From NCBI GenBank assembly GCA_963840495.1, contig CAWIZN010000044.1:194055-258054 (forward strand): DNA of 64,000 bases. Reading direction: 5' to 3'. The first letter of the stretch is position 1. Each line of letters starts with the position of its first letter. Source of the DNA: an uncultured Candidatus Rokubacteria bacterium. GTDB lineage: Bacteria; Methylomirabilota; Methylomirabilia; Rokubacteriales; CSP1-6. The position numbers and the translations under genes are program-made. A model generated the notes under the pieces. That model did not search any database. It saw only the letters and a program-made list of their open reading frames with translations, and was not told where the DNA came from. Below, piece after piece: positions 25,140 through 29,511 of the stretch.

Positions 25140-28100
25140 ATGTACGTCGAGCTGCACGCCCGGAGCGCCTTCAGCTTTCTCGAGGCGACGCCCTTGCCGG
25201 AGGCCCTGGCCGAGCGGGCGGCGCAGCTCGAGCAGCCCGCCGTGGCGCTCGTCGACGCCGACGGCCTCTACGGCGCGCCCCAGCTCTACCGCGCGTGCAC
25301 GCGCCTCGGCCTCAAGGCCATCGTCGGCGCCGAGGTGACGCTCGACGGCGGCGGTCGGCTCCCGCTCCTGGTCGAGGACCGCGAGGGGTACAAGAACCTC
25401 TGCCGGCTCTTGACCCGCATCAAGATGCGCGCGCCCAAGGGCGAGGGCGCGGCCACCGTCGACGATCTCGTCGAGCACGCGGCGGGGCTGGTCTGCCTCA
25501 CGGGCGGCGCCGGGGGCCCGGTGGCGGCGCACCTGGCCCGGGGTGACGACGGAGGGCGCGGGCGATCTCCTCCAGCGCCTGGTGACCGTCTACGGCCGCT
25601 TCAACGTCCACGTCGAGCTGCAGCGCCATCTGTCCCGCGCCCAGGAGGCGCAGAACGACTGGCTGCGCGCGCGGGCGTCCGGCCTCCGCCTGCCGCTCGT
25701 CGCCACCAATGCGCCCCGGCTCGTCGCCCGCGAGGACCGGCCGCTGCTCGACGTCTTGACGTGCATCCGGGAGCACACGACCCTCGATGCCGCGGGGCGG
25801 CTCCTCTCGCAGAACAGCGAGCGCTTCATGAAGAGCGGGCGGGTGATGGAGCGGCTCTTCGCGGACTGCCCGGAAGCCGTGGCGAACGCAGGCGAGCTGT
25901 CGCTCCGGCTCGGCTTCACCCTCAAGGACCTCGGCTACCAGTTCCCCGACTATCCGCTGCCGCCGGGCGAGACGCCCATCGGCTACCTCCGCGCGCTCTC
26001 GGAGGCGGGCGCGCGCACGCGCTACGGCACGGGGCCGCTCGCGGAGCAAGGCCCGCCGCCAGATCGCGCACGAGCTCGACGTGATCGGGCGCCTCGATCT
26101 GGCCGGCTACTTCCTCATCGTCTGGGACCTGGTCCAGTACTGCGGCCGGAACGAGATCCTCGTGCAGGGGCGGGGCTCGGCGGCCAATAGCGCCGTGTGC
26201 TACGCGCTCGGGCTCACCGCCGTCGATCCGGTGGGGATGGAGCTGCTCTTCGAGCGCTTCCTCTCCGAGGAGCGCGGGGAGTGGCCGGACATCGACCTCG
26301 ACCTGCCGAGCGGCGACCGCCGCGAGAAGGTCATCCAGTACGTCTACGAGCGCTATGGCCGCCTCGGCGCGGCGATGACCGCCAACGTCATCACCTATCG
26401 CGGCCGGAGCGCGGCGCGGGAGGTCGGCAAGGCGCTCGCGCTGCCCGCCGATCTCATCGAGCGGCTGTCCCAGCTCGTCAGCAACTGGGAGTACAAGGAC
26501 CCCGGCGATACGCTCACCGCGCATCTCGGCGAGGCCGGCTGCGATCCCGGCGACCTGCGCATCCAGCACTTCGCGCGCGTGTGGACGGCGATCCAGGACC
26601 TGCCGCGGCATCTCGGCCAGCACTCCGGCGGCATGGTGATCTGTCAGGGACGACTCGATAGCGTGGTGCCGCTCGAGCCCGCCACCATGCCGGGCCGCTC
26701 GGTGATCCAGTGGGACAAGGACGACTGCGCCGCCCTCGGCATCGTCAAGGTGGACCTCCTCGGCCTCGGCATGATGGCGCTCCTGGAAGACGCGCTCGAG
26801 ATGATCCGCCGCGCGCGGCGGCTCGGTCGACCTCGCCCATCTGCCCCAGGACCGCGAGGTGTACGAGATGCTGAAGAAGGCCGACACCATCGGCGTCTTC
26901 CAGGTCGAGAGCCGCGCCCAGATGGCCACCTTGCCGCGCCTGCGGCCCGAGTGCTTCTACGACCTCGTGGTGCAGGTGGCGATCATCCGGCCGGGCCCCA
27001 TCGTCGGCGACATGGTGCACCCCTATCTCCGCCGCCGCGCCGGGCGCGAGAAGCCGACGGTGCCCCATCCCGCCCTCGAGGAGATCTTGAAGCGCACGCT
27101 CGGCGTGCCCCTCTTCCAGGAGCAGCTCCTGCGCATGGCCATGGCGACGGCGGGCTTCACCGGCGGCGAGGCCGAGGAATTGCGGCGCGCCTTCGGCTTC
27201 AAGCGCTCCGAGCGCGCCATGAAGGCCGTGGAGACAAAGCTCCGCGCCGGCATGACCCGCCAGGGCATCGTGGGCGAGCAGGCCGAGAGCATCATCCGCT
27301 CCATCACCGCCTTCGCGCTCTACGGGTTTCCGGAATGCGTCGTCGGCGAGACCCGGGTGATCGACGCCGACACCGGCGGATGGGTGAGGATCGAGGACAT
27401 CGTGAACGGACGCGTGCGCGTCGAGCACACGCTCGCCTGCGACCCGGACATGAAGCTGCGCAAGCGCCGCGTGCTCGCCGCCACGTCGAGCGGCCCGCGG
27501 ATGGTCTATCGCCTGCGCACCGCGCTCGGCCGGGAGCTGTTGGCGACGCCCGAGCATCCGTTGCTCACGATGGACGGCTGGCGCCCCCTGGGAGCCCTCA
27601 AGGAGGGAGACCATATTGCGGCATCGCGTGAGCTTGCACCCCTCGGTCGCAAACGCTGGCCTCAGTACCGGCTCATCGTGCTCGCCGATCTCATCGCCGA
27701 AGGCAATCTGTGTCATCCGAGCACACTGTACTTCTACACGACGGATCCTCAGTATCGAGACGAATTTGTGAGCGCTGTCGAGAGATTCGAGAACACACGA
27801 GCAACCATAGCCTTCACAAGAAAACTGCTACAGCGTGCATGTCCGGCGGGCCGACGCCACGAGGCCGATCGGAGTAGTCGAATGGGTGAAGCAGCTTGGA
27901 ATTTGGGGGGACGGCGCGCGCACGAAGCATCTACCAGAGGAAATATTCCTCCTGCGAAGCAGCGATCTCGGTCTGCTGCTTGCTCGGCTGTGGGAAGGCG
28001 ACGGATCTTTGTCGCTCGCTGGCCATGCTTCGTACGACACTGTATCGCGCCGACTCGCTCAGGAAATCCAACACCTGCTCCTGCGAATGGGAATTGTGTC

Positions 28101-29511
28101 GCGATTGTATAAACGGGCTCGGCCATGCCGCGATGGAATTGCGATAGGGTTTGTCGTCACGATTACCGGGCAGAGGAACCTCCGTCGATTCCATCGTGTG
28201 ATTGCTAGACGGTTTCTCAACGCGAGCAAGCGCCGGCTGATGGAGCAGATAGTTCAGCGTCGAAGAGATGGCCGCGCCTCTCGAGACGTCATCCCAGTGG
28301 CGGTGAGGGCCATGGTCGATTCAGCTCGGCAGAAGCCGGCGGCTGACTGGGATAGGCTCGGGCGAGGAGACGAGGCTATCGATGCGTGCCATCTGCTCAC
28401 CAGATGGATCGAAACGTGGATACCGTCGACGAACGATTGTCCGCTTGGCCCGGTATTCGAGTGCCGGATGGCGCCTGGCGGGGTCCGATGTCTGCTGGGA
28501 TCGGGTCACCGCGGTCGAGCTGGTCGGTGAGCGGGACACGTACGACCTGCACGTCGAGGAGGACCACAACTTCATCGCCAATGATCTCGTGGTGCACAAC
28601 TCGCACGCGGCGAGCTTTGCGCTGCTCGCGTATGCCAGCGCCTACCTCAAGCGGCATCATCCGGCCGCGTTCTACGCCGCGCTCCTCAACAATCAGCCGA
28701 TGGGGTTCTATCACCCGGCCACCATCGTGCGGGACGCCCAGCGGCACGGGCAGGTGATCCATCCCGCCGACGTCAACTTCTCGGGATGGCTCTGCGCCAT
28801 CGAGCCCGACGAGGCGGTGCGGCTCGGGCTGCGCTACGTCAAGGGCTTGAGAGAGGAAATGGGCAAGCGCATCGAGGAGGAGCGCCGGCGGGGGCCCTTC
28901 GCCTCGGCGGCCGATCTGGTCAAGCGCACGGAGGTGCGCCGCGACGAGCTGACCCAGCTCGCCCGGGTCGGCGCCCTCGCGAGCCTCGAGCCCGAGCGGC
29001 GCGCGGCGCTCTGGGACGCCGAGCGCGCCGTCCGTCCTCGCGGGGTCTTGTATGACGCGCTCCCGGATCCCCGGAGGCCTCCCCACTTCGGGTGATGACG
29101 CCGGGAGAGCTGATCGTCGCGGATTACGAGGGCACCGGCTTGAGCCTGGGGCCTCATCCGATGGAGTTTCACCGGGCGCGGCTCGACCGGATGCGCGCGT
29201 CGCGGGCGTCGGATCTGGCGACGATGCCCCACGGCATCCTCGTGCGCGTGGCGGGCGCGGTGGTGGTGCGCCAGCGTCCGGGCACCGCCAAGGGCTTCGT
29301 CTTCCTGAACCTGGAGGACGAGACCGGGCTCATGAACGTGATCGTGCGCCCCGCCCTGTTCCACCGCTACCGGCTCGCGCTGGTGAACGAGCCGTTCCTC
29401 TACGTGGAAGGCACGCTCCAGCACCAGGACAATGTCGTCTCCGTCAAGGCCGAGCGCCTCGCCCCGCTGCGCCACCGCCTCACGCCGGTTCCCTCTCACG
29501 ACTTCCACTGA
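25140..29511 (+). pseudogene. dnaE2: error-prone DNA polymerase III alpha-like DnaE2, intein-containing, multiple frameshifts as sequenced
   Basis: The PHP start is MYVELHARSAFSFLEATPLPEALAERAAQLEQPAVALVDADGLYG. It continues through track ORFs 25543.., 26081.. (GRGSAANSAVCYALGLTAVDP...PDIDLDLPS...), 26859.. (GVFQVESRAQMATL...IIRPGPI...), 28382.. ([37 protein letters not shown]...) and 29092..29511 (OB-fold end). Extein frame changes are near 25540, 26050, 26820 and 29070. It sits directly after imuA-imuB. Confidence 0.9.
27336..28600 (+). mobile_element. intein with LAGLIDADG homing-endonuclease domain inside DnaE2
   Basis: The N-extein/intein junction is YGFPE|CVVGETRVIDADTGGWVRIEDIV (Cys1 at 27336). 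The dodecapeptide motifs are LIVLADLIAEGNL and LGLLLARLWEGDGSL. The C-terminal block is TYDLHVEEDHNFIANDLVVHN|SHAAS (Asn at 28598-28600, +1 Ser). The region is visibly AT-richer than its flanks. There are two internal frame changes, near 27820 and 28420. Confidence 0.85.

Follow-up and report, generated by a model that had tools for sequence, protein, structure and literature searches.

Results

An intein-bearing dnaE2 gene in the imuA-imuB-dnaE2 cassette

We analyzed a stretch of 64,000 nucleotides (nt) of contig CAWIZN010000044.1 (positions 194,055 to 258,054 of the forward strand; assembly GCA_963840495.1) from an uncultured Candidatus Rokubacteria bacterium. This whole stretch is referred to as the window, and coordinates are counted from its first nucleotide. 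Its plus strand carries, in a Methylomirabilota/Rokubacteria-like genome, the gene for DnaE2 (ImuC), the polymerase belonging to a mutasome cassette, imuA-imuB-dnaE2. Between 27336 and 28600, a class 1 intein interrupts this gene; the intein has 421 residues in the repaired translation and encloses a LAGLIDADG endonuclease with two motifs. The insert is flanked by an N-extein (25140-27335, plus strand), covering the PHP and palm domains and part of the fingers, and by a C-extein (28601-29511, plus strand) that begins with Ser+1 and contains an HHH_6 domain. The N-extein contains three 1-nt insertions and the C-extein is one base short. Each of the six resulting extein pieces obtained its top score with the NCBIfam model NF004225 (error-prone DNA polymerase), and the pieces are collinear. 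The N-extein matches model positions 6-132, 155-308, 316-564, and 576-738 in four successive frames, and the C-extein matches positions 739-892 and 908-1047, with a summed score of ~1161 bits compared to a cutoff of 939. Since the N-extein stops at position 738 and the C-extein begins at position 739, the model contains no sequence that corresponds to the insert. In addition, the closest database proteins of the extein are labeled error-prone DNA polymerase.

The junctions can be read directly from the sequence. The upstream dnaE2 frame, ...SITAFALYGFPE, extends up to 27335 and ends in YGFPE (27321-27335). The TGC codon of Cys1 (27336-27338) follows directly 3' of it. At its other end the intein terminates with ...HNFIANDLVVHN at 28600, its last residues being VVHN, and the TCG codon of Ser+1 (28601-28603) is the first codon of the C-extein. 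The conserved motif GF(P/N)(E/K)SH is thus split between YGFPE and SHAASF. The intein as sequenced measures 1265 nt, two inserted bases more than the 1263 nt that make up its 421 codons. Once repaired, its translation can be aligned with intact homologues over the full length, without indels or stop codons. The intein profile searches were run on this conceptually repaired translation and evaluated against the curated Pfam and NCBIfam cutoffs. Four profiles matched above their cutoffs, namely, Intein_splicing (PF14890; E value of 2.8e-23, 82.9 bits, cutoff 35.8), LAGLIDADG_3 (PF14528; 7e-15, 55.4 bits, cutoff 22.5), intein_Nterm (TIGR01445; 4.5e-13, 50 bits, cutoff 24.5), and intein_Cterm (TIGR01443; 1.2e-7, 31.8 bits, cutoff 15.6). 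An initial annotation made from the sequence alone had described a full-length class 1 LAGLIDADG intein at these coordinates, with a Cys start, two dodecapeptide motifs, and a Ser after its end, and had proposed searches with Hint and LAGLIDADG profiles. The profile matches and the direct reading of the sequence agree with that description in each of these respects.

The splicing elements are arranged as follows. The N-terminal splicing (Hint) region (27336-27650, plus strand) contains block A with Cys1 and block B with TPEH (27546-27557); it is the part covered by TIGR01445, and intein residues 1-120 match the Ssp DnaB mini-intein (1MI8) and PI-MtuI (2IMZ) in phmmer searches. The C-terminal splicing region (28466-28600, plus strand) comprises blocks F and G (DTYDLHVEEDHNFIANDLVVHN), ends with His-Asn, and matches TIGR01443 as well as positions 115-155 of the Intein_splicing profile. 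Cys1, the TPEH of block B, the His-Asn of block G, and Ser+1 are all present and are conserved across the homologues. The LAGLIDADG homing endonuclease domain (27651-28465, plus strand; PF14528) is located between the two Hint halves. Motif 1, LIVLADLIAEGNL (27672-27710), includes LADLIAEGN with a putative catalytic Glu in IAEGN, and motif 2, LGLLLARLWEGDGSL (27967-28011), includes LARLWEGDG with a putative catalytic Asp in WEGDG, so that each motif has its terminal acidic residue. Residues E33/G34/N35 and G132/D133/G134 are invariant in a trimmed alignment of homologues (alignment A2), and the match to PI-PfuI (1DQ3) covers intein residues 212-313. The G+C content (GC) of the endonuclease part is 0.582, compared to 0.717 and 0.704 for the two exteins, and a codon model trained on the host scored the segment 27793-28484 as non-host-like.

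The two genes upstream complete the cassette. An imuA-like gene with a RecA fold of the SulA/ImuA type (23136-23756, plus strand) is the first gene of the cassette; its Pfam RecA match (E value of 4e-12) lies on the frame 22617-23756. It is followed by imuB, which encodes an inactive Y-family polymerase homologue (23756-25046, plus strand). Its Pfam IMS match (8e-8) lies on the frame 23753-24790, and the gene occupies two frames, with a break near 24736-24790 and a C-terminal piece at 24801-25043 in another frame. Compared to the syntenic relative L082, imuB has 1-nt gaps at 24736 and 24765. The proposal that the host is the DnaE2 of an imuA-imuB-dnaE2 cassette is thus borne out by the NF004225, RecA, and IMS matches. 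Using tblastn, we found imuA-imuB upstream of the intein-bearing dnaE2 in nine Rokubacteria loci (L001, L003, L004, L006, L010, L012, L014, L015, and L057), and the order imuA-imuB-dnaE2 is also present in L082 and L084. In proteobacterial loci, the imuA and imuB tblastn searches were uninformative because the sequences are too divergent; NCBIfam models nevertheless revealed the order lexA-imuA-imuB-dnaE2, with an intein-bearing gene, in the gammaproteobacterial locus L021. No lexA gene adjoins the cassette in the window, where no search for a LexA box was made. Rfam and tRNA scans of the window found nothing.

Distribution of the intein

Searches with the repaired intein retrieved 116 protein homologues, nearly all of which are located in fragments of polymerase III alpha-type or error-prone polymerases. 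We then scanned a collection with one genome per species, using the trimmed alignment A2 as the query, and found relatives of the intein in 282 species-level genomes. The figures on junctions, length, GC, and frame given below are derived from the best 80 of these 282 loci, which belong to Methylomirabilota/Rokubacteria, Steroidobacteraceae, other Gamma- and Betaproteobacteria, Kofleriaceae/Myxococcota, Armatimonadota, Phycisphaeraceae, and Chloroflexota. We could identify both junction motifs in 62 of the 80 loci, and 60 of these 62 inteins are in frame and free of stops. The architecture YGFPE-C.VG.T.V ... HNF.AN..VVHN-SH, in which hyphens mark the junctions, is present at both junctions in 58 of the 80. 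Most of the inteins in this position have a length of 1263-1272 nt, and the closest homologues (61-67% identity) are all found in Rokubacterial dnaE2 genes. The rarity implied by the initial annotation does not hold, since relatives at the same site occur in hundreds of public metagenome-assembled genomes (MAGs), with some copies labeled by their depositors as intein/homing endonuclease or error-prone DNA polymerase.

The initial annotation had also noted that the endonuclease part is richer in AT than the host gene, which the values above confirm, and had taken this as a sign of horizontal homing. The latter does not follow for this locus: the endonuclease shows a GC dip in 62 of 62 loci (mean of 9.7 ± 3.2 points; 12.2 points in the window), and because the dip is common to all loci measured, it is a trait of the family. 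We therefore rejected AT-richness as a mark of recent arrival.

Empty sites, mini-inteins, and mobility

Evidence for mobility comes instead from empty sites in near-identical relatives and from conflicts between intein and extein identity. In two relatives, L081 (93-97% DNA identity) and L082 (96-98%), window position 27335 is joined directly to 28601 and the intein is absent. The joined empty-site sequence is CTCTAYGGGTTYCCNGAR followed by WSNCACGCGGCGAGC, and that of L082 is CTCTATGGGTTTCCGGAG followed by TCGCACGCGGCGAGCTTT. At the protein level, P0117 and P0118 share 96-97% identity with the window over 329 extein residues and contain an uninterrupted YGFPESHAASF. These orthologues are collinear and lack the insert, in agreement with the initial annotation, and no DnaE2 orthologue with nonintein sequence at the insertion position was seen. 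Three further proteins from public metagenomes and MAGs (P0047, P0069, and P0143) carry mini-inteins of ~150 amino acids at the same site, without an endonuclease. These are the nearest intein-bearing DnaE2 relatives, and what they have lost begins immediately behind GDHIAAAR and stops immediately ahead of the (V)SWD block. To judge from these proteins, the endonuclease has been cleanly lost in sister lineages. Full-length, mini, and empty alleles coexist in a narrow clade, and the lineage is currently polymorphic.

Over 113 homologue pairs, the median ratio of nonsynonymous to synonymous substitution rates of the endonuclease domain is 0.11, and the domain is under purifying selection. Among the gammaproteobacterial loci L020, L024, L038, and L078, there are pairs whose inteins are more alike than the flanking exteins. 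The identities are 87% (intein) compared to 72% (extein) for L020-L038 and 81% compared to 68% for L020-L024, and L024-L038 behaves likewise. Because the identity of the intein exceeds that of a flanking extein that is itself highly conserved, these comparisons indicate that inteins are exchanged between diverged dnaE2 alleles and move horizontally.

We also inspected the sequence next to the site. The Ser+1 codon is TCN in 62 of 63 occupied alleles, AGT in the empty L081, and TCG in the empty L082. Because the latter also uses TCG, we rejected the idea that this codon distinguishes alleles that are occupied or immune. Synonymous differences (TAT/TAC, TTC/TTT, CCT/CCG, and Ser AGT/TCG) are clustered at ~660-690 of L081 relative to window positions 27310-27335/28601-28630. 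The cluster could represent a variant resistant to the endonuclease, or else a tract of co-conversion; it is absent from L082, the second empty allele.

Frame breaks in dnaE2 and across the window

The dnaE2 gene as deposited contains six single-base indels, of which two fall within the intein and the other four within the exteins. When aligned to the window, intact intein-bearing orthologues (1455-1466 amino acids) are divided over seven consecutive frame segments. The extein indels were located exactly by comparison with L082 and L081. Three are 1-nt insertions in the N-extein, at ~25552, at ~26049 (GAG-C-AAG), and at ~26813 (CGCGCGCGG), and the fourth is a 1-nt deletion in the C-run 29069-29073 of the C-extein, where the window has CCCC and both L081 and L082 have CCCCC. 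The first break of the intein is a surplus A in an A4 run (27821-27824, plus strand); removal of one A yields ...ATIAFTRNCYSVHVRR..., equal in length to ...ATVARHRNCFSVHVRR... in L001. The second is an extra base in CGAGGAGACG at ~28365, within 28363-28372 (plus strand), where the sequence at ~28365-28370 is GGGCGAGGAG. Frame 1 reads ...DWDRLGR and frame 2 carries on with ETRLSMRAICSPDGSKRGYRR, with a spacing that then equals that of L001 and L007. None of the breaks involves an in-frame stop, each being plus or minus 1 nt. Of the two breaks that the initial annotation had placed in the endonuclease region, the first is found where it was reported and the second lies ~50 nt away from the reported ~28420. 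That annotation presented them as a property of this region, which is not the case, given the four additional breaks in the exteins and the many in other genes of the window.

Pfam families are split across frames in at least 7 other window genes, including those for biotin carboxylase, an ABC ATPase, a DUF898 protein, a double ABC ATPase (whose frame is left and then regained), a GNAT protein, an Abhydrolase_10 protein, and a molybdopterin oxidoreductase that is split over three frames. A codon-usage Viterbi pass detected ~20 additional switches between frames of one strand, none with a stop close by. Candidate breaks in the 64 kb amount to about 25-35 (for example, at ~3960, 5798, 9884, 35165, 42556/42933, and 56733/57163), and some long genes, such as the LeuA-like and AMP-binding genes, are intact. 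Two proteins in the public collection, P0016 and P0092, which belong to a contig of 289,051 bp, correspond verbatim to truncated open reading frames (ORFs) of the window, and the breaks therefore belong to the deposited assembly. The syntenic L082 is in the right frame at all four extein break positions and has 1-nt indels in imuB and dnaE2 that are distinct from those of the window, and L081 is in frame at both break positions that it covers (26813 and 29069). Among the 62 homologous loci, only two inteins are out of frame (L012 and L029), both from MAGs with MFD-prefixed isolate names. The stretch where the breaks are densest, 20900-29500, covers a strain-variable segment and the whole imu cassette.

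Variable segments next to the cassette

Segments next to the cassette also differ between the window and its relatives. (i) Directly 3' of the dnaE2 stop, a 1405-bp segment (29512-30916) is absent from L081 and L082, in which an alpha/beta-hydrolase gene lies within about 10-70 nt of dnaE2. The segment has a lower GC (0.62-0.67) and appears noncoding under the host codon model; its ORFs 29877-30407 (minus strand) and 30118-30591 (plus strand) have no Pfam match. At the right end of this insert, positions 30760-30838 (with weaker similarity from 30713) form a degenerate duplicate, with 89-96% identity, of the C-extein segment 28681-28762, which is located 80-160 nt downstream of the intein site. 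The duplicate may be the relic of a rearrangement or of aberrant repair. (ii) Upstream of imuA, ~5 kb (18043-23066) have no counterpart in the syntenic L082. An SBP_bac_5 gene is present here on the minus strand, 1.3 kb (19613-20920) show no coding signal, and the Abhydrolase_10 gene (20921-22996) is broken into ~10 frame segments. (iii) A single ORF of 715 amino acids (30837-32984) fuses an alpha/beta hydrolase to a luciferase-like monooxygenase, whereas L082 has two genes (262 and 377 amino acids). A 2-nt gap at window position 31750 removes the TAG that ends the hydrolase gene, and the single ORF accordingly reflects either a genuine fusion or one more error of the assembly.

Discussion

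Proposed splicing and homing

Taken together, we consider it highly probable that the insert at 27336-28600 is a canonical intein of class 1 in the DnaE2 fingers that encloses a LAGLIDADG endonuclease, that the lineage is polymorphic for it, and that the frame breaks are consensus errors. The mechanism outlined here was inferred from the conserved residues and from established intein chemistry, on which the predicted splicing and cleavage activities of this intein likewise rest. The precursor polymerase would be translated through the intein, and Cys1 would carry out an N-S acyl shift. The resulting thioester would pass by trans-esterification to Ser+1, the Ser that is conserved in the host's GFPE-SHA motif. 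Asn421 would then cyclize with the help of His420 and free the intein, and an O-N shift would generate the native YGFPE-SHAASF peptide and an active DnaE2. Because the insertion is in the catalytic fingers, the unspliced precursor should be inactive. For homing, the endonuclease would cut an intein-less dnaE2 allele at the joined sequence, and repair would copy the intein into it. The median substitution ratio of 0.11 in the endonuclease domain lends indirect support to such site-specific cleavage.

Alternative explanations

Of the breaks in the cassette, two fall within the intein, four within the exteins, and one within imuB. Most likely, the assembly consensus is wrong by a single base at each of them, and they are not signs of intein decay, because breaks occur throughout the window and because L082 has independent indels. 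Several observations weigh against this interpretation. The deposited dnaE2 cannot be translated through its intein and exteins; the break density is ~2 per kb at 20.9-29.5 kb, compared to ~0.4 per kb elsewhere in it; and, as the closest relatives lack the intein, there is no near-identical intein-bearing sequence with which the two intein breaks can be compared. The frameshifts might accordingly be real, in which case the imu cassette and its intein were recently inactivated, leaving a dead intein in a dead gene. The six 1-nt indels in 4.4 kb of dnaE2 and at least one more in imuB, a density ~4-5 times the window average, would be expected of such a gene, and the indels are part of the deposited record, since P0016 and P0092 are exactly the truncated ORFs. 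However, there are no nonsense codons, larger deletions, or lost catalytic residues; similar breaks affect housekeeping genes such as those for biotin carboxylase, ABC ATPases, and the molybdopterin enzyme; and the relatives are in frame at the extein positions that they cover, with L082 having different indels of its own. We thus regard a recent inactivation as unlikely, although the dense breaks leave a genuinely decaying cassette some probability. The excess at 20.9-29.5 kb might reflect a lower coverage of the strain-variable region, which is a guess. An assembly chimera, with intein sequence of a different gene or strain (such as a DnaB or RecA intein) misjoined into dnaE2, would account for the top named NCBIfam match, to the intein portion of a DnaB helicase model (6e-64), and for a composition unlike that of the host gene. 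Yet the junctions are codon exact at a conserved motif and recur in the 58 loci mentioned above, whose assemblies are independent and were produced by different assemblers, and the closest homologues all reside in Rokubacterial dnaE2 genes with imuA-imuB upstream. A chimera is therefore scarcely credible.

Another possibility concerns the role of the intein, which may not be purely selfish but a switch that benefits the host, with conditional (redox- or DNA damage-dependent) splicing that gates the mutasome after translation. The location in the catalytic fingers is compatible with this idea, since an unspliced precursor should lack activity, as is the persistence of mini-inteins without an endonuclease at the site in close relatives. 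The intein-bearing gene of L021 is part of a lexA-imuA-imuB-dnaE2 cassette, and the RecA intein of M. tuberculosis was reported to splice conditionally in its native host (PMC11377839). On the other hand, nothing in the sequence requires regulation, the empty alleles in relatives that are 96-98% identical show that the intein is dispensable, and purifying selection on the endonuclease is what is expected of a selfish homing element. We consider a host-beneficial switch very improbable. A broader scenario, in which a single intein lineage is mobile today in soil bacteria, has crossed between DnaE1 and DnaE2 at the homologous fingers site, and gates SOS mutagenesis by splicing in DnaE2, would be a long shot as well. 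If it were true, error-prone synthesis would be available only once the DnaE2 intein splices.

Implications

The preferred reading, a canonical and mobile intein in a gene with assembly errors, has practical consequences for annotation. In public MAGs, intein-bearing dnaE2 genes are split or mislabeled as "LAGLIDADG family homing endonuclease," "hypothetical protein," or partial polymerases, and recognition of the allele would permit correct calls of the mutasome polymerase in Methylomirabilota, Steroidobacteraceae, Kofleriaceae, and other groups. The data also extend the host range of the hot spot in the fingers of polymerase III alpha to a damage-inducible paralogue. Full-length, mini, and empty alleles at >93% DNA identity form a natural system for questions of homing and of the relation between splicing and induced mutagenesis. 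A note of caution is in order, as the unusual look of this locus came from its frame breaks, which are most likely a property of the assembly rather than of the element. The element itself is of an ordinary kind, present yet unremarked in hundreds of public genomes.

Comparison with known inteins

The survey by Novikova et al. (2016) lists 116 inteins in polymerase III alpha (COG0587) and describes an intein hot spot in the fingers, where sites a-d and g all fall into 75 residues, site a being that of the split cyanobacterial inteins (PMC4760082). The inteins of this hot spot and the window intein share the host superfamily (C-family polymerase alpha), the subdomain, and class 1 architecture with a Cys start, and the window site may coincide with one of the points b, c, d, or g. 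The survey, which includes 27 noncyanobacterial cases, treats the host as the replicative polymerase and, in the part consulted, does not name DnaE2 or ImuC. The split DnaE inteins (Ssp/Npu; site a) interrupt the same conserved motif, since their native C-extein, Cys-Phe-Asn (PMC3585056), corresponds to the GF(N/P) of GF(N/P)(K/E)SH. Their insertion point is four residues upstream, before (G>C)FN and with Cys+1, whereas the window intein follows GFPE and uses Ser+1. In addition, the split inteins are trans-splicing, lack an endonuclease, and reside in the replicase, whereas the window intein is contiguous, contains an endonuclease, and resides in the SOS/mutasome paralogue. Being contiguous and located four residues downstream, it is not an allele of the split DnaE intein.

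The closest named relatives of the splicing domain are the DnaB and RecA inteins of mycobacteria and Synechocystis (intein part of PRK07773; 1MI8, 2IMZ, and 6FRG), with E values of 6e-64 for the intein region of NF005852, 2.5e-19 for 1MI8, and 1.7e-17 for 2IMZ. They have class 1 chemistry and a LAGLIDADG-type architecture in common with the window intein but occupy other hosts and sites, and their identity is low compared to the 50-67% observed among inteins at the DnaE2 site. Full-length inteins with 42-44% identity are found at the same position in four Chloroflexota loci (L073, 1-1470; L077, ~680-2040; L079, ~1460-2830; and L080, ~2035-3400). They carry the endonuclease motif LLAEGNLCHP and have the junctions YGFNK-C...HN-SHA, so that the flanking motif is GFNK compared to the GFPE of the window dnaE2. 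The host of L080 is a replicative DnaE1, as it scored 1166 bits with NF005298 compared to 621 bits with the error-prone model. This suggests that the intein has been transferred between the polymerase paralogues DnaE1 and DnaE2. None of the papers found in our literature search names a DnaE2 or ImuC intein, and polymerase surveys mention inteins solely as having been excised before analysis. The element described here is thus a real, canonical intein in a paralogue in which none of the papers found explicitly describes one; it is abundant in public data and is located in a known intein hot spot.

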